From: Bdellovibrionales bacterium
Lineage (GTDB): Bacteria > Bdellovibrionota > Bdellovibrionia > Bdellovibrionales > UBA1609
Length of the DNA stretch: 64,000 nucleotides
Direction: 5' to 3'
Assembly: GCA_965204055.1 (NCBI GenBank)
Contig: OZ241967.1
Coordinates: 322,144-386,143, forward strand
In this document: piece after piece, positions 39,931 to 56,021 of the stretch
Layout: every line of letters begins with the position of its first letter
How positions within the stretch are numbered: the first letter of the stretch is position 1
The notes under the pieces: generated by a model
The model's database searches: none
Seen by the model: only the letters and a program-made list of their open reading frames with translations
What the model was told of the DNA's origin: nothing
Translations under genes and position numbers: made by a program

Positions 39931-40073
39931 AGTGAAACGTGAAAAAGTATGTTATTTTGACTGGATTCTCCTTTGAAAAATGCTAAAAGTCCGTTGGGCT
40001 TTCATTTTAGGTTCTGGATACCCGCTTTCGCGGGTATGACAGCGAAGGAGAATGAGGTTTATCACGGAGGACT
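39931..40073. mobile_element. MITE-like element (core type B)
   Basis: Ends AGTGAAACGTGAAAAAG ... GGTTTATCACGGAGGACT. Perfect 4-bp flanks ATAT/ATAT. Hairpin GGATACCCGC-TTTC-GCGGGTATG. Confidence 0.75.
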
Positions 40074-40384: not shown

Positions 40385-41860
40385 ATGAGTATAGAAAAAA
40401 AAGAAAATATTTTAAAAGAAGAAAAGAAAAGAAAGTTAAATCTGCTTTTAGAAAAAAACCTCAACCCCTATCCTCACAATTTTAAGCGCGCCCAGGTAAG
40501 CTCTCAAATTAAAACCCAGTATGCGCATTTAAAACCGGGTGAGTCCGCAGAAGAGCCAACAAAAACCGCTGGTCGGTTAATGCTTAAAAGAAGTATGGGT
40601 AAAGTGGCCTTTTTCAATATTCAAGATCAAGAGGGAGATTTGCAGTGCTATCTTAAGATTCAAGAGTTAGATAAACAGTCCGCTCAGTTTTTTTCTTTGG
40701 TGGATATTGGAGATATTGTAGGAATGCAGGGGACTGTGTTTCGTACTAAAAGAGGGGAGCTGACTTTGCGCTGTTCGGAATTTCAAATTTTGTGTAAAAG
40801 CCTGGAACCTCTTCCTGAAAAATATCATGGTGTAGAAGATAAAGAACTAAAATACCGCCGAAGGTATTTAGATTTGATTATGAATCCTGATTCTAAAAAA
40901 GTGTTTCTTATTCGATCAAAAGTGATAAAGGAAATTCGTGCCTTTATGGATAAGCGGGGTTTTTTAGAGGTGGATACCCCTGTTCTTCAACCTCTTTATG
41001 GTGGGGCGGAGGCCCGGCCTTTTTCTACTCATCATCACGCTTTGGACTCTCATTTATATTTAAAAATATCTCCTGAGCTTTACCTAAAACGATTGATTAT
41101 AGGTGGGTTTGAGAAAGTTTACGAGTTAGGAAAAAACTTTAGAAACGAGGGCATTGATCGCTCCCACAACCCAGAGTTTATGATGTTAGAATATTACGAA
41201 GCTTACACAGATTATTTGGATCAGATGAAGCAGTTTGAAGAATTAGTTTGCCATGTAGTTAAAAATGTCCGGGGCAGTTTAAAGTTTGAGTATCAAGGCC
41301 GGGTTTTAGACTTTACTCCTCCTTGGAAAAGGATTAATGTATTAGAGGGGATTACACAACACGCTGGTTTTTCTTTAGAGAAAATGAGTAATAAAGAATT
41401 ATTTGATAAAATAAAATCCCTGGGGTCAGATATGGAAAAAGAAACCAGCCGGGGAGCTATGATTATGGAGGCTTTTGAGTTAACTGTAGAAAAGCATATT
41501 TGGCATCCGGTGTTTATTACTGATTTTCCGAAAGACATATCCCCTTTAACCAAAGAGCACAGGAGCGAAAAAGATCTGGTAGAACGATTTGAGCCGTATG
41601 TAGCAGGTATGGAATTAGGTAATGCCTATACAGAGTTAAACGATCCAGTGGATCAAAGAAACAGATTAGAGGAGCAAGAGAGAAAAAGAAAGTTAAATAA
41701 AGAGGCCCATGCTATGGATTATGAGTTTGCTCGTGCAGTGGATACAGGTATGCCTCCCACAGGGGGTGTGGGTTTGGGGGTAGAGCGTCTCATTCTTTTA
41801 TTGGCTGATCAACGTAGTATTAGAGACATTATTTTATTCCCCACTTTAAAATCTCTTTAA
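40385..41860 (+). CDS. lysS: Lysine--tRNA ligase (class II)
   Basis: OB-fold N-domain, class II motifs (FLEVDTPVLQ, FRNEGIDRSHNPEFMMLEYY, GGVGLGVERL). 491 aa. Confidence 0.93.
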   Translation: MSIEKKENILKEEKKRKLNLLLEKNLNPYPHNFKRAQVSSQIKTQYAHLKPGESAEEPTKTAGRLMLKRSMGKVAFFNIQDQEGDLQCYLKIQELDKQSAQFFSLVDIGDIVGMQGTVFRTKRGELTLRCSEFQILCKSLEPLPEKYHGVEDKELKYRRRYLDLIMNPDSKKVFLIRSKVIKEIRAFMDKRGFLEVDTPVLQPLYGGAEARPFSTHHHALDSHLYLKISPELYLKRLIIGGFEKVYELGKNFRNEGIDRSHNPEFMMLEYYEAYTDYLDQMKQFEELVCHVVKNVRGSLKFEYQGRVLDFTPPWKRINVLEGITQHAGFSLEKMSNKELFDKIKSLGSDMEKETSRGAMIMEAFELTVEKHIWHPVFITDFPKDISPLTKEHRSEKDLVERFEPYVAGMELGNAYTELNDPVDQRNRLEEQERKRKLNKEAHAMDYEFARAVDTGMPPTGGVGLGVERLILLLADQRSIRDIILFPTLKSL

Positions 41861-41878
41861 ATTAAAGTGCAGGTAAAG

Positions 41879-43438
41879 ATGAAAAAGAAATATAAAAAAT
41901 CAAAGCTGGAAAAAGAACCTATAGAAAAAAAACTGTGGCGGTCCGCAGATAGCTTGAGAAAAAATATTGATGCCGCTGAATACAAGCATATTGTGCTGGG
42001 GTTAATTTTCCTAAAATATATTTCTGATTCTTTTGAGGCCCTTTACAGTAAACTTAAAAAAGCACGAGGTAAATACGCAAAGGCTGATTTAGAAGATCGG
42101 GACGAATACAAGGCAGAAAATGTTTTTTTTGTGCCTCCTTTAGCTCGTTGGTCTTATTTACGCTCTCGTGCTAAAATGCCAGAAATTGGTCGGGACATTG
42201 ATTCAGCAATGTCTGCCATTGAAAAAGATAACCCTGCATTAAAAAATGTTCTTCCAAAGGTATATGCTAAAGGTAACTTAGATCCGATAAGCCTTGGGAA
42301 ACTTATTGATGAGCTGAGCAATATTGATATGGAGTCTGCTAAAAATCACAGTGCAGATATTTTAGGCCATGTGTTTGAATATTTTTTAGGTCAATTTGGC
42401 CTGGCAGAGGGTAAAAAGGGTGGGCAGTTTTACACCCCTCGCTCTGTTGTAAAACTTTTGGTGGAAATGCTTAAGCCTTACAAGGGTAAGGTGTTTGATC
42501 CTTGCGCAGGAACAGGCGGTATGTTTGTGCAGTCGGAAGAATTTATTAAAGAGCATCAGGGGCGCATTAATGATATTTCCATTTACGGACAGGAGAGCAA
42601 CCAAACCACTTGGCGACTATCTAAGATGAACTTGGCTATTCGTGGGATTGAAAGTTCAAAGGTAAAATGGAACAGTGAAGGTTCTTTTTTGAAAAACGCT
42701 CACCCGGATTTAAAAGCGGATTACATTATTGCTAACCCACCTTTTAACGACAGCAGTTGGGGCCAGGCTTTGCTTAAACAGGATGGACGGTGGAAGTATG
42801 GTTTGCCACCAGAGGGGAATGCTAATTTTGCCTGGATCCAGCATTTTATTCATCATTTAAAACCTCCGGCAGAAAATCAACCAGGTGGTCAAGCGGGCTT
42901 TGTGATGGCTAAAGGTTCTTTAACTTCTAAATCTTCAAACGAAGATAAAATCCGAAAAAACATGGTCGAAGATCATCTTATAGACTGCATTGTAAATTTG
43001 CCTGCAAAACTTTTTTTAAACACTCAAATTCCTGCATCTCTTTGGTTTTTAAGAAGGGGGAAAACTTATCGTCGAGATCAAATTCTTTTTATTGACGCCA
43101 GAAATAAGGGGCGTCTTATCAACCGCCGAAACCGCGTGTTGGACGATGAGGATATTCATAAAATTGCTCATGTATATCGTAGCTGGTTAGCAGAAGGGGA
43201 GAGTCCTTTACTTTACACAGATGAACCAGGTTTTTGTGCTTCTGTTTCTATTCAAAAGATCCGGGAGTTAGATTACATTTTAAGTCCGGGTCGTTATGTA
43301 GGGTTACCGGAGGAAGACGATGACTTTAATTTTGCAGAAAAATTTACAGAATTAAAGGGCCGTTTAGATCAGCAAATGAAGGAGGAGGCAAAATTAAACA
43401 GTCGCATTAAAAAAAACCTCTCTCGCATTGATATATGA
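41879..43438 (+). CDS. hsdM: Type I restriction-modification methyltransferase subunit
   Basis: HsdM N-domain (LWRSADSLRKNIDAAEYKHIVLGLIFLKYISD), GQFYTPRSVVKLLVEML, DPCAGTGGMF, catalytic IIANPPFN. Starts 18 nt after the lysS stop. Confidence 0.9.
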   Translation: MKKKYKKSKLEKEPIEKKLWRSADSLRKNIDAAEYKHIVLGLIFLKYISDSFEALYSKLKKARGKYAKADLEDRDEYKAENVFFVPPLARWSYLRSRAKMPEIGRDIDSAMSAIEKDNPALKNVLPKVYAKGNLDPISLGKLIDELSNIDMESAKNHSADILGHVFEYFLGQFGLAEGKKGGQFYTPRSVVKLLVEMLKPYKGKVFDPCAGTGGMFVQSEEFIKEHQGRINDISIYGQESNQTTWRLSKMNLAIRGIESSKVKWNSEGSFLKNAHPDLKADYIIANPPFNDSSWGQALLKQDGRWKYGLPPEGNANFAWIQHFIHHLKPPAENQPGGQAGFVMAKGSLTSKSSNEDKIRKNMVEDHLIDCIVNLPAKLFLNTQIPASLWFLRRGKTYRRDQILFIDARNKGRLINRRNRVLDDEDIHKIAHVYRSWLAEGESPLLYTDEPGFCASVSIQKIRELDYILSPGRYVGLPEEDDDFNFAEKFTELKGRLDQQMKEEAKLNSRIKKNLSRIDI

Positions 43439-43659: not shown

Positions 43660-44220
43660 GTGGTAATGACTTTAGCCAGTAAAAAATTAAAAGAGCTTAT
43701 TGATGAAGCAACATCTAAAAAATCCGGAGTGGACTGGGATAGGGTTTTAGTGGAATGGAAAAGCCATGTCCACCATTTGTATAAACAAGTTGAAATCTGG
43801 ATAAGAAAGTCAGGTGCGTTTAATAAAATACAATTGGATAAGCGGGAAATAACAATTTCTGAAAACCACATTGGTTCTTATCAAATAGATCAGCTGATAT
43901 GGACAGTAGGTGGTCATATTATCAACTTTATTCCTCAAGGAAGATTGATTATAGGTGCCAAAGGTAGGGTGGACATCATTTGTGGTAGCCGAAAAGCACT
44001 TCTTTTGCTGTTGAGCAAAGATGGGCAACCCTCTATAAAAACCCAGGAGTTTAATACAGAACTTGAATATGAAAAGTACAAAGAGCGCGAAAGCAAAAAG
44101 ATAAAAAAACACAGATCACAAGATCTGGTATGGAAAATCTCAAGGCAAATACCAACAACTGGGGTAAGTCTCTTTACTGAAAATGAATTTACAGAAGTTT
44201 TTGAACAACTGATTGCTTAG
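43660..44220 (+). CDS. Hypothetical protein embedded in the hsd locus (186 aa)
   Basis: ORF with a GAGGTGG RBS. No recognisable motif. Confidence 0.6.
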   Translation: MVMTLASKKLKELIDEATSKKSGVDWDRVLVEWKSHVHHLYKQVEIWIRKSGAFNKIQLDKREITISENHIGSYQIDQLIWTVGGHIINFIPQGRLIIGAKGRVDIICGSRKALLLLLSKDGQPSIKTQEFNTELEYEKYKERESKKIKKHRSQDLVWKISRQIPTTGVSLFTENEFTEVFEQLIA

Positions 44221-44330: not shown

Positions 44331-44882
44331 ATGATAAAAATAAATATATTTTATGATATAAATAGTTGTTATATTCATTCTCGATTAGCTTTAACCCGGC
44401 TTGAGAGAACAATAAAAACGCGCCCTGATGATATAAATGAATTACAGGACTTTTTAGGTATGACTGAAAATGAAGCCAGACAGTATTTTCAAAAATTACA
44501 AGATGAATTGGAAACAGCGTATGTTTTTAAAATTGTGTCTGCTATGGAAGCAGTTTTTAGGCAGGATTTTAATAAACGGGTGAGAAAACGAAAACTAAGC
44601 CAAGAACCAAATAAAAGTTTTAAAAAAATATTTAAAAAAAAAGCCACCCTTAGCAGAGTTCATTTGAAAGAAGATATATTGGAAATATGGAAAAAGAAGG
44701 TGCATGGTGTACATAAACCCACTATTTCCAAATTTTATGAACTTATAAATTATCGCCATTGGATAGCGCATGGGCAATATTGGTTATATCAGCAAAAAAA
44801 ATTTGATATACCATCAACTATAACAATTGTAACAAGTGTATTTAATGAGTGCCGACGTGTAGCACCTGATTTTAGTCATTAA
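44331..44882 (+). CDS. Predicted HEPN-domain protein (RiboL-PSP/Swt1-like)
   Basis: C-terminal Rx4H motif in ELINYRHWIAHGQYW. All-helical look. Located between hsdM and hsdS. Confidence 0.55.
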   Translation: MIKINIFYDINSCYIHSRLALTRLERTIKTRPDDINELQDFLGMTENEARQYFQKLQDELETAYVFKIVSAMEAVFRQDFNKRVRKRKLSQEPNKSFKKIFKKKATLSRVHLKEDILEIWKKKVHGVHKPTISKFYELINYRHWIAHGQYWLYQQKKFDIPSTITIVTSVFNECRRVAPDFSH

Positions 44883-44892
44883 GGAAGAGCAA

Positions 44893-45309
44893 ATGAGCAA
44901 TATCAATTATGAAAAACTAAAAAAATCTCTTGAGAAATTGGAAGAACAATATGAAAATTTTCTCACATTGGATAAAAAAAATATATCCGATCTTGATAAA
45001 GAGGCTATTAAAGAATCTGTTATACATAGGTTTGAAGTTTGCTATGACATTTTTTTTAAAAGTTTGAAAAAATATCTCCAGAAAGAAGGATTAACTGTGG
45101 ACTCAAGTGCCCCAAGAGCTATCCTTCGTAAAGCTAATGAAAGCGGTTTGATAGATCAGGAAACATTAGATAATTGGTTTGCCCATATTGAGTTAAGAAT
45201 AGGAACAGCTCACGACTACAGTTTAGAGAAAGCAGAACAAGCTTTAAGAAAAATAAGTGATTTTATTGAAGATGTGAAAGATATTTACAAAGTGATGTGT
45301 TCTTTATAA
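44893..45309 (+). CDS. HEPN-domain protein, HI0074 family (nucleotidyltransferase substrate-binding protein)
   Basis: ESVIHRFEVCYDIFFKSLKKYL and the Rx4H motif ELRIGTAHDYS. 138 aa. Followed by an MNT domain. Confidence 0.75.
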   Translation: MSNINYEKLKKSLEKLEEQYENFLTLDKKNISDLDKEAIKESVIHRFEVCYDIFFKSLKKYLQKEGLTVDSSAPRAILRKANESGLIDQETLDNWFAHIELRIGTAHDYSLEKAEQALRKISDFIEDVKDIYKVMCSL

Positions 45310-45338: not shown

Positions 45339-47444
45339 ATGGTTAAAGAGAATTTAATAGATCTGGATAGAAAGCAACTTAAGCTTTTACAGGCAATCAT
45401 TAAAACTTGTATTCCCGGTAAAACAGTTTGGGCTTATGGTTCTCGTGTTTTTTGGAAAGCAAGAGAAAACTCTGATTTGGATTTAGCTGTTTTTGGTTGT
45501 TCTTCCAGGCAAATATATAATTTTAAGGAGGCTTTAGAGGAAAGCAATTTGTTAGTTTCTGTTGATGTAATGGACTGGGAAAGTATACCTGAAAGCTTTA
45601 AAGTCAATATCAAAAAAAAATATGTAGTTTTACAGAAAAGCGAAGATATATTAGACTCACAGGAAAACAATATTGAAATTTCTATTAGCCGGGAGCATGC
45701 AGTTTATGCCAGAGATATAGAAAAATGTTTTGGTGTATTGAATGTAAAAGTCCAGCCTAATTTTTGTCGAAAGTCAATAGACGAGCTTCCGATGAAGATT
45801 ATAATTTTTCTTACAGAAGTAGTTGTTACAGGTGCATTCTGGGAGTTACTAAAGGCAGGAATTAAAAAAGTTTTCAAAAACTTTAATCAAGTTAATATGG
45901 ATATTGATGATAATAGGCCAAATAAGAATCCTAATATAATGCGCTATACAATAGATAGTGATGGAAATGTTTTTGTATATGCGGATTCTTCTGAAAAAAT
46001 AAAAGAATATTCATATATAAAAACCATTGATGATTTATTAGAACATTTGAAAAATCAAGCTTCACAAAGCAAGTCCGCTTCAGGAGGCAAGTCATCTTCT
46101 GGAAACATGTTATCCTCAGGAAGTAAGTTATCTTCAGGGAGCCAGCCATCTTTAAGAAGTTTGTCATTCCCGCGAAGGCGGGAATCCAGTCAAAAAAAAA
46201 TTTTCTCTGGATTGACTGATCAACCTATGTTAAAAGGCTGGCGCAAAGTGAAACTTAAGGAAATAATTAACTTAATAGGAGGAGGTACACCTAAGACTAA
46301 TATACCGGAATATTGGAATGGAAATATTCCATGGCTTTCAGTGACAGATTTTAATACGGGCAGAAAATATGTGTATAGCACTGAAAAATATATTACCAAT
46401 CTTGGGTTACAAAAAAGCAATACAAAAATCCTTAATAAAGATGACATTATTATTTCTGCAAGAGGAACTGTAGGGGTTGTTTCTATGACAGGAAAAGAAA
46501 TGGCCTTTAATCAATCATGTTATGGAATAAGGGCTAAAGATGAATCGTTTAATGAATATATTTACTACTTGTTAAAAAATACCGTAAATCAGCTACAACA
46601 TATTTCTCATGGTGGGGTGTTTGATACAATTACAAGAGATACCTTTAATAAAGTTGAAGTGCCTCTTCCTCCACTTCTTGAGCAAAAAGCGATTGCAGAG
46701 GTCTTGTCCAGTTTGGATGATAAAATTGAACTATTGCATGAGCAAAACAAAACTTTGGAAGAAATAGCTCAAACCCTTTTCCGCAAGTGGTTTATCCAGG
46801 ACGCCAACCCCCATTGGCCACAAAAACCTTTAGATGAATTGCTAAGTACAATCGAGTCTGGTTCACGGCCAAAAGGAGGAATTAATCCAGAGTTAAAACA
46901 AGGGATACCTAATATAGGGGCTGAAAGCATAAATGGTATAGGAAGATTTGACTTTTCAAAAACAAAATATGTAACAGATGAATTTTTTAAAAATATGAAA
47001 AAAGGGGTTGTAAAAGATTATGATGTTCTAATCTATAAAGATGGTGCTTATATTGGCAAAAAAGCAATGTTTGGCAACGGATTTCCTTTTAAGAAAATGG
47101 CTGTCAATGAGCATGTTTTTATTTTAAGAACCAACAGTAAAGCAGATCAATTTTTTCTTTATTTTTCACTGGAACAGAAAAAGTTATCAAAACTAAATGC
47201 TAATTCCGCCCAACCGGGCTTAAATCAAAAATCTATGAAGTCTCTTAAGATCATTATCCCACAAAAAGATATAATAAATAATTTTCAGAATACTGTTAAG
47301 CCGTGGATTGATAAGATACTTTTTAACAGTAATCAAATCAGAAATCTTGCAGATCTTCGCAACACCCTCCTACCCAAGCTAATAACCGGTCAAGTCCGAG
47401 TAACTTTTAAAAATAAAAAAACACAAATAAGTTCATCTTGTTAA
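45339..47444 (+). CDS. hsdS: Minimal nucleotidyltransferase (MNT) domain continuous with a type I specificity subunit (apparent MNT-linker-HsdS fusion)
   Basis: MNT motif GSRVFWKARENSDLDLAVFG...VDVMDW. No stop codon up to TAA 47444. Ser/Gly linker from 6 x 18-bp repeats (46069-46176). HsdS part begins at MLKGWRKVKLKEIINLIGGGTPKT (46227), with central LPPLLEQKAIAEVLSSLDDKIELL and C-terminal LADLRNTLLPKLITGQVRV. Confidence 0.65.
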   Translation: MVKENLIDLDRKQLKLLQAIIKTCIPGKTVWAYGSRVFWKARENSDLDLAVFGCSSRQIYNFKEALEESNLLVSVDVMDWESIPESFKVNIKKKYVVLQKSEDILDSQENNIEISISREHAVYARDIEKCFGVLNVKVQPNFCRKSIDELPMKIIIFLTEVVVTGAFWELLKAGIKKVFKNFNQVNMDIDDNRPNKNPNIMRYTIDSDGNVFVYADSSEKIKEYSYIKTIDDLLEHLKNQASQSKSASGGKSSSGNMLSSGSKLSSGSQPSLRSLSFPRRRESSQKKIFSGLTDQPMLKGWRKVKLKEIINLIGGGTPKTNIPEYWNGNIPWLSVTDFNTGRKYVYSTEKYITNLGLQKSNTKILNKDDIIISARGTVGVVSMTGKEMAFNQSCYGIRAKDESFNEYIYYLLKNTVNQLQHISHGGVFDTITRDTFNKVEVPLPPLLEQKAIAEVLSSLDDKIELLHEQNKTLEEIAQTLFRKWFIQDANPHWPQKPLDELLSTIESGSRPKGGINPELKQGIPNIGAESINGIGRFDFSKTKYVTDEFFKNMKKGVVKDYDVLIYKDGAYIGKKAMFGNGFPFKKMAVNEHVFILRTNSKADQFFLYFSLEQKKLSKLNANSAQPGLNQKSMKSLKIIIPQKDIINNFQNTVKPWIDKILFNSNQIRNLADLRNTLLPKLITGQVRVTFKNKKTQISSSC

Positions 47445-47472: not shown

Positions 47473-48291
47473 GTGTCATCATTAAAAATGCACGAGAAAA
47501 CTATTTTTGAAAAATTATTTAATCGTGATGGATATGTCCTTAATTTTACTGATAGAACTTTTGCTGAGTTCTTTAGAGAACATAGAATAAACATTGAAGA
47601 CAATAAATATCATATTAACGGTAGATCAAAAATGAAGAGGCTTAGGGCTTTTTGGGAAATTGAGTCAGACAAAACTGTTGGTCAAGTACTACAATCCTTG
47701 CTTGAATATGCTTGCAATATAGACAGTGTTAGCCCTGATGCTAAGGACAATGCTATGAAAATAGTTTCACGATTATTACAAAAAGAAAATCGAGAACAAA
47801 TCACAGAACAGGAACCGGAGGATATTTTTCTAAAACAAGAATTTAAAGACATTGCTATTGAGAAACTGAATCTAAATATTGAGATGCAAGAAGTGATTAA
47901 AATGAGAATAGAAGAAATTAAAAAATGTTTAAAGTTAAAAGCATCACTGGCAACAATTTTTTTATGTGGAAGCACTCTTGAGGGGATACTACTTTCCGTT
48001 GCAGAAAATCATGCTGATAAATTTAAAACCATAGCTAAAGATAAAAAATGGAAAGTTTTACCATTTCATAAATGGACTCTTGGTAATCTTATTGATGTTT
48101 CTAAAGGAATTGGATTATTACATGAAGACGTAAAAAACTTTAGTCATTCATTAAGAAAGTTTAGGAATTACATTCATCCATATCAACAAGCTGTTGAAAA
48201 TTTTAACCCAGATGAAAATACTGCTAAACTATGTTGGCAAGTTTTAAAAGTAGCCATTGTTCAAATAAGTAAAAATAGCAAAATAAGATAA
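47473..48291 (+). CDS. AbiJ-like protein: AbiJ-NTD-like N-terminus + HEPN-type C-terminus
   Basis: GGAGG RBS. N-terminus FEKLFNRDGYVLNFTDRTFAEFFREHRINIEDNKY...KRLRAFW. C-terminal motif LRKFRNYIHP (Rx6H). Confidence 0.5.
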   Translation: MSSLKMHEKTIFEKLFNRDGYVLNFTDRTFAEFFREHRINIEDNKYHINGRSKMKRLRAFWEIESDKTVGQVLQSLLEYACNIDSVSPDAKDNAMKIVSRLLQKENREQITEQEPEDIFLKQEFKDIAIEKLNLNIEMQEVIKMRIEEIKKCLKLKASLATIFLCGSTLEGILLSVAENHADKFKTIAKDKKWKVLPFHKWTLGNLIDVSKGIGLLHEDVKNFSHSLRKFRNYIHPYQQAVENFNPDENTAKLCWQVLKVAIVQISKNSKIR

Positions 48292-55876: not shown

Positions 55877-56021
55877 AGTAGAGCGTGAAAAAATCTGTTG
55901 CAATAAAGTAAACAGGATTTATTTTATCCTAAAACAGGCGAGATTCCCGCTCAAGGCGGGACTGTAAAGCCAAGTACTTGGCTTTACAGTTGGAGATGAA
56001 CAGGGTTTATCACGGGCGACT
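55877..56021. mobile_element. MITE-like element (core type A)
   Basis: Ends AGTAGAGCGTGAAAAAA ... GGTTTATCACGGGCGACT. Perfect 4-bp flanks AAAT/AAAT. Palindrome CTGTAAAGCCAAGTACTTGGCTTTACAG. Confidence 0.8.

Follow-up and report, generated by a model that had tools for sequence, protein, structure and literature searches.

A predicted MNT nucleotidyltransferase domain fused to the type I specificity subunit HsdS, in a hsdM, HEPN, MNT::HsdS operon family

Does a reading frame that begins as an MNT nucleotidyltransferase and ends as the specificity subunit of a type I restriction-modification system encode a single protein, and what could such a protein do? Much is known about type I restriction-modification and about HEPN/MNT toxin-antitoxin modules taken separately; the linkage of HEPN genes with restriction-modification operons was reportedly noted in 2013, and PrrC is said to be the sole worked example of functional coupling. 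We analysed the locus within a window of 64,000 nucleotides, by which we mean the whole stretch of DNA considered here. The source organism is an uncultured relative of Bdellovibrio. The features concerned, in window positions, are the following:

40385-41860, lysS, directly 5' of hsdM (tRNA-synt_2, E 4.6e-91)
41867-43438, + strand, hsdM, type I N6-adenine DNA methyltransferase subunit (Pfam N6_Mtase, E 1.4e-103; HsdM_N, E 3.1e-25)
43660-44220, + strand, orf186, embedded gene with no match in Pfam, NCBIfam or PADLOC
44331-44882, + strand, orf183, weak HEPN-like protein with NYRHWIAH, which fits Rx4H
44893-45309, + strand, candidate HEPN RNase toxin of the HI0074/NTase_sub_bind family (PF08780, E 3.4e-23)
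45339-47444, + strand, single MNT-X-linker-HsdS reading frame, 701 codons from ATG 45339 to TAA 47444
45339-45641, + strand, MNT (MntA/HI0073-like) nucleotidyltransferase domain (PF18765, E 2.5e-10)
45642-46061, + strand, domain X, conserved alpha/beta domain accompanying HsdS or DNA methylases (40 representative clusters)
46062-46226, + strand, disordered Ser/Gly-rich linker with 18-bp tandem repeats, a hairpin core and an A9 tract
46227-47444, + strand, complete HsdS module, two target-recognition domains and two long conserved helices (PF01420 twice)
47473-48291, + strand, orf272, probable DUF4145-like HEPN protein with RKFRNYIH (family tags and similarity to the fusion protein P0069)

Taken together, the evidence argues that the frame at 45339-47444 is probably a genuine gene whose product is a specificity subunit of three modules, namely an N-terminal MNT domain of MntA/HI0073 type, the accessory domain X and an entire HsdS, with flexible linkers between them, and that it belongs to a widespread operon family of the type hsdM, HEPN, MNT::HsdS. 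The first-pass annotation had read the frame as uninterrupted from the ATG to the TAA and had proposed the same order of domains, and both readings hold. An alternative in-frame GTG at 45297 would lengthen the frame to 715 codons. The nucleotidyltransferase (Polbeta/MNT) occupies residues 28-100 and two Methylase_S target-recognition domains follow from residue 299 onward, with a Pfam E value of 2.8e-48. The region between the MNT and HsdS parts (45642-46226, 585 nt, GC 33.5%) has zero in-frame stops, and the other two frames of the same region contain 17 and 19. That some 580 nt of AT-rich non-coding DNA would hardly stay free of stops had been argued already, and the figures agree: none of 200,000 shuffles was stop-free and the analytic P is 5.9e-8. 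In the model of the whole protein, MNT and HsdS are folded (pLDDT >90) and the linker is disordered, and the MNT, X and HsdS modules all keep their family-invariant residues and have confident predicted folds. The approximately 296 extra N-terminal residues relative to an ordinary HsdS amount to two folded domains plus the linker.

Along its whole length the HsdS part shares 62-67% of its residues with ordinary HsdS proteins (393-408 aa), and its model shows two target-recognition domains and long helices at residues 446-487 and 643-683 (pLDDT >90); with hsdM on the same strand in one operon, these features identify it as an HsdS. Assignment to the MADS subunit Mad5 was rejected, the NCBIfam MADS5 model giving 63 bits for an equivalog cut-off of 400; the top PADLOC match, mad5 (E 5e-91), was no better than generic type I specificity models. 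Three HsdR queries found no hsdR in the 64-kb window (tblastn, E <= 1). Elsewhere in the genome (1717186-1720455) there is a solitary hsdR, flanked by neither hsdM nor hsdS, whose identity to its counterparts in two related loci (L002 and L064) is 71-73%; given this likeness, it is the probable source in trans of the R subunit. Lacking an hsdR of its own, the locus might instead act solely as a methyltransferase.

As for the toxin-antitoxin side, among solved structures the MNT domain matches HI0073 best (1NO5; domain profile, E 5e-26), and the domain carries YGSRVFWKARENSDLDL, which fits GSX10DXD. A HEPN gene had been placed just upstream, at 44893-45309, and its product is confirmed as an NTase_sub_bind/HI0074-type protein: it is a single domain of 138 aa, passes the NCBIfam model of the HI0074 subfamily (TIGR01987, 63.4 bits for a cut-off of 55.8), contains RIGTAHDY, which fits RX4HXY, and has TTHA0048 and HI0074 as relatives in the PDB. 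GSX10DXD and RX4HXY are the motifs shown to mediate the AMPylation of HepT by MntA (PMC7641770). Among related proteins, GSX10DXD is intact in 124/124 fusions and RX4HXY is kept in 40 of the 43 HEPN partner genes. The NCBIfam equivalog models score below their cut-off of 60 (36.4 bits for MntA_antitoxin, 26 for HepT_toxin), and judged by these profiles the pair is HI0073/HI0074-like and is no equivalog of the pair characterised in Shewanella.

Domain X, of about 130-140 aa, had been described as a middle region with a hydrophobic helix. The AlphaFold2 model (pLDDT 87, pTM 0.81) corrects this description: it is a soluble alpha/beta domain in which the hydrophobic segment makes up a buried strand and helix, and a membrane anchor in this region was thereby ruled out. 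Forty representative clusters match X, with E values down to 3.8e-24, and in them it occurs either as a standalone protein of 130-170 aa just 5' of hsdS or at the N-terminus of HsdS proteins of about 530-560 aa. It matches nothing in Pfam, NCBIfam or PADLOC, and its fold has no significant counterpart either, the best Foldseek hits being tautomerase/MIF-like in the PDB (E 0.06, TM 0.34-0.38) and reaching E 0.018 in BFVD. A conserved partner gene for X was considered and rejected: orf266, which lies 5' of a standalone X (P0261), resembles neither orf183 nor orf272 and has no Pfam match.

The linker that joins X to HsdS is predicted with a pLDDT of 25-30 over residues 243-289. Six 18-bp repeats had been counted in it; Tandem Repeats Finder gives 4.8 copies of period 18 at 46067-46152, with 72% matches, and within this genome such repeats are confined to the present locus. 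Further on, the A9 tract (46192-46200) is preceded by a hairpin, ATTCCCGC-GAAG-GCGGGAAT, which is exact at 46166-46185 for a chance expectation of 0 matches. This hairpin had been called MITE-type; the palindrome is only the core, about 30 nt long, of a repeat family with 45 copies in the genome, 17 of which fall within frames that stay open for 200 codons or more. A full MITE in the linker was rejected, since only the core aligns with the elements of about 145 bp at 39931-40073 and 55877-56021 and no element ends are present. The extra length of the gene would thus come from domain X and from an in-frame linker generated by local 18-bp duplications and the palindromic repeat core, and the gene would exemplify how palindromic-repeat and tandem-repeat DNA can be recruited as an in-frame protein linker.

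Relatives of the protein also speak for a genuine fusion. MNT::HsdS fusions make up at least 113 protein clusters and are found in at least 44 species genomes of seven or more phyla, with hosts in Gammaproteobacteria, Nitrospirales, Bdellovibrionales/Oligoflexia, Spirochaetota, Thermodesulfobacteriota and Planctomycetota. All 113 clusters of related MNT proteins of 417-891 aa also contain PF01420, and in about 36 of the 44 species-genome loci the order is hsdM, HEPN, MNT::HsdS with no stop separating MNT from HsdS. The fusion to HsdS and the same type of operon are shared by three divergent MNT subgroups. A stop or frameshift separating the two parts in orthologues would have spoken for two genes; this is the exception, seen in the few loci where MNT stands alone (e.g., L053, L054, L056 and L061, as well as G007, G010 and G013). 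The position of the HEPN gene before MNT had been taken as a reversal of the usual order; in this subfamily it is the norm, the HEPN frame touching or overlapping the MNT start in most related loci, by 4 nt of the called HEPN stop in L001 and L002. The linker is generally short (<20 aa in 110 of 120 fusions), and a methionine near the MNT/HsdS junction is present in only 19 of the 120.

The operon family, in which hsdM, HEPN and MNT::HsdS are followed by optional extra genes and hsdR, is without a specific name. A full-text search did not find a description of the MNT::HsdS fusion in the literature it covered, a result that does not prove that none exists. Within the family the present copy is unusual by its inserted domain X and its disordered Ser/Gly linker built of repeats, and there are in-frame precedents for each arrangement: MNT-X-HsdS in one protein (P0103), X-HsdS in another (P0018) and MNT-linker-HsdS in two (P0003 and P0004). 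The same genome contains a second MNT::HsdS operon. Other domains are fused to HsdS on its C-terminal side in relatives, namely TIR-STAND and an orf272-like domain, the latter at the end of P0069 (32% identity, E 1e-11). A homologue of orf272 also lies 3' of the fusion in L030; its family is large (1729 clusters), with a few members carrying the PF13643 tag. The two genes between hsdM and HEPN, orf186 and orf183, have zero homologues among 47 related loci, including two that carry X (L002 and L019), and the Pfam matches of orf183 are sub-threshold (HEPN_MAE_28990, E 0.0032; RiboL-PSP-HEPN, E 0.0037).

A long frame could nevertheless be tolerated by a cell that makes two products from it, either because HsdS is translated from the internal ATG at 46227 or because slippage on the A9 tract ends the upstream frame at a TGA (46213-46219), 8-14 nt before that ATG, and MNT-X would then be a free antitoxin. 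The ATG falls exactly at the canonical start of HsdS (MLKGWRKVKL), unlike in most fusions, so that a separate 45-kDa HsdS is conceivable; both shifted frames stop just 5' of it, and a minority of related loci do have the standalone MNT mentioned above. We regard this reading as unlikely on several grounds. The pattern of Shine-Dalgarno sequences noted earlier proved correct, with AAGGAAG ahead of 44893, GGAGG ahead of 47473 and nothing similar ahead of 46227, and internal promoter-like sites are not enriched (26, for a shuffle expectation of 21.6 +/- 4). An off-frame stop within 10 codons is what chance predicts at 33% GC. A close relative on an independent metagenome contig (L064) has the same linker in frame, an in-frame gap of 432 nt where X sits, and hence no X, an ATA at the codon of the internal ATG, and A7 in place of A9; the frame has been maintained through a repeat-rich linker and through the indel of X. 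This contig also bears on whether the fusion is an artefact of sequencing or assembly, or a pseudogene in decay where two genes were joined by loss of a stop. The genome is a single-contig MAG and the linker is rich in repeats, both of which count in favour of such an origin, but an independent contig with the same in-frame linker, three modules that retain invariant residues and fold confidently, a second fusion in the same genome and the size of the wider family make this explanation highly improbable.

A different doubt accepts the fusion and concerns the MNT/HEPN pair, which may not act as a toxin-antitoxin module here: the HEPN protein would be a substrate-binding partner, and the pair would nucleotidylate a restriction-modification subunit, DNA or a small molecule so as to regulate restriction or methylation. 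The closest solved relatives, HI0073/HI0074, were indeed first described as a two-subunit nucleotidyltransferase (PMC3710099), and the MntA and HepT scores lie below their cut-offs. However, the HEPN partners retain Rx4H and the acceptor tyrosine in all but three of the 43 loci, and PF08780/PF01909 pairs with both motifs have been assigned to the class I HepT/MntA modules and tested as such (PMC7641770), and we consider this regulatory role quite unlikely. On balance, the comparative evidence supports the earlier proposal of a covalent MNT-HsdS protein that would link a HEPN/MNT pair to the specificity subunit of a type I system.

If the single three-module protein is made, its action can be outlined after HepT/MntA and PrrC/EcoprrI. 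By extension from HepT/MntA, the MNT domain would modify the upstream HEPN RNase with AMP from ATP, on the tyrosine of RIGTAHDY, and the AMPylated RNase would stay silent. Because the neutraliser is part of HsdS, control of the toxin would be physically coupled to the M2S (and R2M2S) complex, by analogy with PrrC/EcoprrI. By the same analogy, loss of hsdS, or a phage anti-restriction factor that disturbs the complex, would free the RNase and lead to arrest or death of the cell. By this comparison, the toxin neutraliser is likely tethered to the type I methylase/restriction complex in a PrrC-like guard or addiction logic, and MNT::HsdS may couple DNA restriction to a fallback of cell suicide or arrest. 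An antitoxin::HsdS fusion that is conserved across phyla also points, in the "Rosetta stone" sense, to two systems that act in one complex. It runs counter to the general view that HEPN-linked modules associate with the nuclease and helicase components of restriction-modification systems alone, leaving out the modification side; the present copy adds to this an uncharacterised HsdS-associated domain, X, and a genome with two MNT::HsdS operons. A more tentative extension, which we hold to be possible rather than likely, is that HsdS serves as a general docking hub for second-line effectors (MNT and sometimes X, to which relatives add a DUF4145-like HEPN or TIR-STAND at the C-terminus). If phage anti-restriction proteins disturbed the complex, or if it were lost, several abortive-infection effectors would then be set free together, and X would be a novel module that senses or neutralises a further partner.

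The known systems closest to this locus each share a part of it. The C-terminal 405 aa match an ordinary type I HsdS, a protein of about 390-410 aa with two target-recognition domains: they form a complete HsdS with the expected fold. Rickettsia palindromic elements are repeats inserted in frame into coding genes, and the palindromic repeat core lying in frame within this coding sequence is comparable in that respect; here only the core of about 30 nt is present, in a disordered linker. The HepT/MntA type VII toxin-antitoxins (Shewanella oneidensis SO_3166/SO_3165, PMC7641770; Haemophilus influenzae HI0073/HI0074, PDB 1NO5 and 1JOG) have the same small RX4HXY HEPN protein adjoining a GSX10DXD minimal nucleotidyltransferase, but their antitoxin is a free protein of about 110-140 aa, whereas here it would be the N-terminal domain of HsdS, with the HEPN gene first and the pair embedded between hsdM and hsdS. 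In fused single-chain MNT-HEPN toxin-antitoxins, MNT likewise has a covalent partner module, and AMPylation is affected by the linker (PMC13000451); there MNT is carried by its own toxin, and here by a restriction-modification subunit, with the toxin separate. PrrC, finally, is a HEPN RNase whose gene lies within a type I hsd operon and which is kept latent through its complex with EcoprrI (PMC3710099), and a candidate HEPN RNase in an hsd operon, with a proposed control by physical association with the restriction-modification complex, is what the present locus shares with it. Membership in the PrrC/RloC anticodon nucleases was rejected, as no ABC-ATPase is fused to the single-domain HEPN protein. 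PrrC combines ABC-ATPase and HEPN in one protein (ABC-ATPase::HEPN) and its contact with EcoprrI is non-covalent, whereas here a separate MNT enzyme, covalently part of HsdS, would chemically neutralise a small HEPN protein: the two are analogous in logic and have no homology of parts.

The frame that joins the MNT domain to HsdS is open from ATG 45339 to TAA 47444, over 701 codons (715 if read from the upstream GTG 45297), and the features needed to follow its analysis are these:

41867-43438: hsdM (Pfam/NCBIfam)
44893-45309: HEPN gene of NTase_sub_bind/HI0074 type, 5' of the fusion (Pfam/NCBIfam)
aa 28-100 of the fusion: Polbeta/MNT nucleotidyltransferase (Pfam)
45642-46061: domain X, the N-terminal 140 aa of the additional residues
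from aa 299 of the fusion: two Methylase_S target-recognition domains (Pfam)
G000:C1:1286210-1300720 (L015 3210-17721): second complete type I operon of the same genome

The first-pass annotation had argued that the stop-free middle is coding, and this was upheld. The MNT-HsdS interval of 585 nt (33.5% G+C) has no in-frame stop, all 200,000 shuffles contained at least one (the analytic probability of a stop-free interval is 5.9e-8) and 17 and 19 stops occur in the remaining two frames; the interval is therefore coding in the MNT-HsdS frame. What had been said of Shine-Dalgarno sequences at the window genes also agreed with the sequence on re-reading.

Judged by sequence comparison, the MNT::HsdS fusion is a family and no accident. 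Many matches to the whole protein are annotated with both PF18765 and PF01420, and when only the MNT part was scored and only long proteins were admitted, 113 clusters of 417-891 aa were obtained, all 113 with PF01420 and 88 with an MNT domain 62-80% identical to the window copy. Where the source names these fusion proteins at all, the only name is 'restriction endonuclease subunit S', and a full-text literature search found no description of the fusion. An MNT-domain profile retrieved 44 loci from species-representative genomes, with many sponge-symbiont Gammaproteobacteria, Nitrospirales, Bdellovibrionales and Oligoflexia among the hosts, together with Spirochaetota/Leptospiria, Thermodesulfobacteriota and Brocadiaceae/Scalindua. 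After ORF calling and phmmer scoring, the order hsdM, HEPN, MNT::HsdS was found in about 36 of the 44, in most of which the HEPN stop-to-stop frame extends up to or into the MNT frame; an hsdR gene is frequently close by, and gene calls for single loci were consistent with this survey. A standalone MNT, again with the HEPN gene first, occurs in a few loci only (L053, L054, L056, L061), and the orthologues support the fusion first proposed from the window alone. Three divergent MNT subgroups are each fused to HsdS in an identical operon arrangement. Of the 120 fusions whose junction could be recognised, fewer than 20 residues separate the MNT end from the conserved Trp opening HsdS in 110, and only 19 have a Met within -12 to +8 of this Trp, so that in most members HsdS is obtainable solely as the fusion. 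Many fusions (loci L020-L063) come from sponge-associated MAGs of Candidatus Spongiihabitans, Poriferihabitaceae and Porifericomitaceae; one locus, L026, has several HEPN copies in tandem 5' of the fusion.

The usual length of MNT::HsdS is 480-510 aa, and the window copy is about 200 residues longer. The first 140 of these residues are a true domain, X, for which there is no Pfam model. An exhaustive search found homologues in 40 representative clusters (P0221-P0260; E down to 3.8e-24), either standalone (130-170 aa) or N-terminal in proteins of about 530-560 aa, of which both scanned were HsdS. One standalone X lies in the order hsdM, orf266, X, hsdS, orf259, hsdR with overlapping gene ends, and another immediately 5' of an N6_N4 DNA methylase gene. 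P0018 is an X::HsdS protein whose operon also holds separate MNT and HepT genes, while P0103 is MNT::X::HsdS, the architecture of the window gene; P0222 and P0235 carry X with other C-terminal regions. The AlphaFold2 model (20-sequence alignment) is alpha/beta, with pLDDT 87 and pTM 0.81, and the supposed 'hydrophobic helix' of the middle region turned out to be a buried strand plus a helix. Foldseek with this model found nothing significant, either in the PDB or among viral models. Near the N-terminus, invariant Ser, Glu and His hint at a putative binding or active site.

The last 55 extra residues form a linker, for which the full-length model predicts disorder (pLDDT 25-30). Its 18-bp repeats, found nowhere else in the genome, are present as first described, but their number is not six, Tandem Repeats Finder giving 4.8 copies. 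The perfect hairpin reported at 46166-46185, of the form ATTCCCGC-N3-5-GCGGGAAT, is there; the core of about 30 nt that surrounds it occurs 45 times in the genome (2.31 Mb), also at 2439-2458 and 40018-40037 of the window. Seventeen of the 45 lie within frames free of stops for 200 codons or more, one of them another HsdS-like ORF (885069-886661), and palindromic repeats may often have been inserted in frame in this genome. The same core is borne by MITEs of ~145 bp, whose ends are missing from the linker.

The closest relative, contig L064, which encodes P0003, aligns with the window DNA over MNT and for eight codons into X; a gap of 432 nt, exactly 144 codons, follows, after which the alignment resumes in the common linker, hairpin included. 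The codon at the position of the internal ATG 46227 is ATA in L064. An in-frame indel of a whole domain, an in-frame repeat insertion in two lineages and the loss in L064 of the only candidate internal start together indicate, at the level of sequence, selection for read-through into HsdS.

The window MNT domain carries the GSX10DXD motif (YGSRVFWKARENSDLDL), found in 124 of 124 fusions examined, and the HEPN protein the RX4HXY motif (RIGTAHDY), found in 40 of 43 partner genes. In HepT/MntA of Shewanella and Thermococcus, both motifs mediate AMP transfer from ATP to the motif tyrosine, by which the RNase is silenced (PMC7641770). Among solved structures, HI0073 is nearest to MNT (E 5e-26), and TTHA0048 and HI0074 are nearest to the HEPN protein. 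Because the scores stayed below the NCBIfam equivalog thresholds of MntA and HepT and the HI0074 subfamily model was passed, we assign the two proteins to class I HEPN/MNT of HI0073/HI0074 type and do not treat them as equivalogs of the Shewanella proteins. The neighbouring orf183 (44331-44882) has an Rx4H motif (RHWIAH) and sub-threshold matches to the RiboL-PSP and MAE_28990 HEPN families, so the island may hold three HEPN-type genes.

The window contains no hsdR. A solitary hsdR, with neither hsdM nor hsdS beside it, lies 1.35 Mb away (G000:C1, 1717186-1720455) and, being 71-73% identical to hsdR of the related loci L002 and L064, probably encodes the R subunit acting in trans. The second operon has the order HTH-hsdM, orf360, HEPN (147 aa), MNT::HsdS (728 aa), OLD-like AAA_15 ATPase, AAA_21 with DUF4276, DUF4143 ATPase and hsdR. 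By its MNT domain the fusion falls in a different subgroup from that of the window; low-complexity inserts enlarge the linker, which has one copy of the hairpin core, and the stretch between the two target-recognition domains. Several of 14 congeners have long frames that encode MNT::HsdS or X::HsdS, and three have a standalone MNT; the exact MNT-X-linker-HsdS architecture was seen in none of the 14.

A less likely reading, for the window copy, is that HsdS is made separately from ATG 46227, possibly aided by slippage on the A9 tract of the linker (46192-46200; A7 in L064). Both shifted frames stop 8-14 nt before this ATG (TGA 46213-46215 or 46217-46219), and slippage could switch between fused and split products; the ATG has no Shine-Dalgarno sequence, the promoter signal is not above background and L064 lends no support. 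That MNT/HEPN is a regulatory nucleotidyltransferase with no toxin-antitoxin function is possible but fits poorly with the conserved RNase motif. An artefact or pseudogene is unlikely, since all modules are intact, and L064 and the second operon also speak against it.

HsdS may also serve as a hub. Three relatives of 845-891 aa (P0069, P0070, P0193) are extended at the C-terminus: the terminal domain of P0069 is 32% identical (E 1e-11) to the C-terminal half of orf272 (47473-48291), the gene downstream of the window fusion, and P0070 and P0193 (849-891 aa) have long extensions. The orf272 family comprises 1729 clusters, among them a few that bear a tag for the HEPN family DUF4145. A Candidatus Oxydemutator gene (L057 5995-10062) encodes MNT::HsdS::TIR::STAND, of 1356 aa. 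Independent fusions of this kind hint that the effectors whose genes surround hsdS act on, or together with, the complex that contains HsdS.

The fused architecture and its operon setting are established, as are its conservation and the intactness of the motifs. As in the characterised family, the MNT domain would silence the HEPN RNase by AMPylation. By analogy, tethering this neutraliser to HsdS would link control of the toxin with the type I complex, through its presence or its state, either as addiction stabilising the hsd genes or as a guard firing once phage anti-restriction factors disturb the complex. The window locus adds domain X, an in-frame linker built of repeats with an in-frame indel in a relative, two operons within a single genome, an unlinked hsdR and C-terminal effector fusions. 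The guard form would resemble, by analogy only, PrrC with EcoprrI, a guard triggered when the complex is disturbed (PMC3710099), in that an RNase is released upon disturbance. According to the same review, the subunits to which HEPN domains linked to R-M systems are fused are nucleases, helicases and ATPases and not methylases (PMC3710099), whereas in the window locus it is the HEPN controller, and not HEPN itself, which joins the modification/specificity side.
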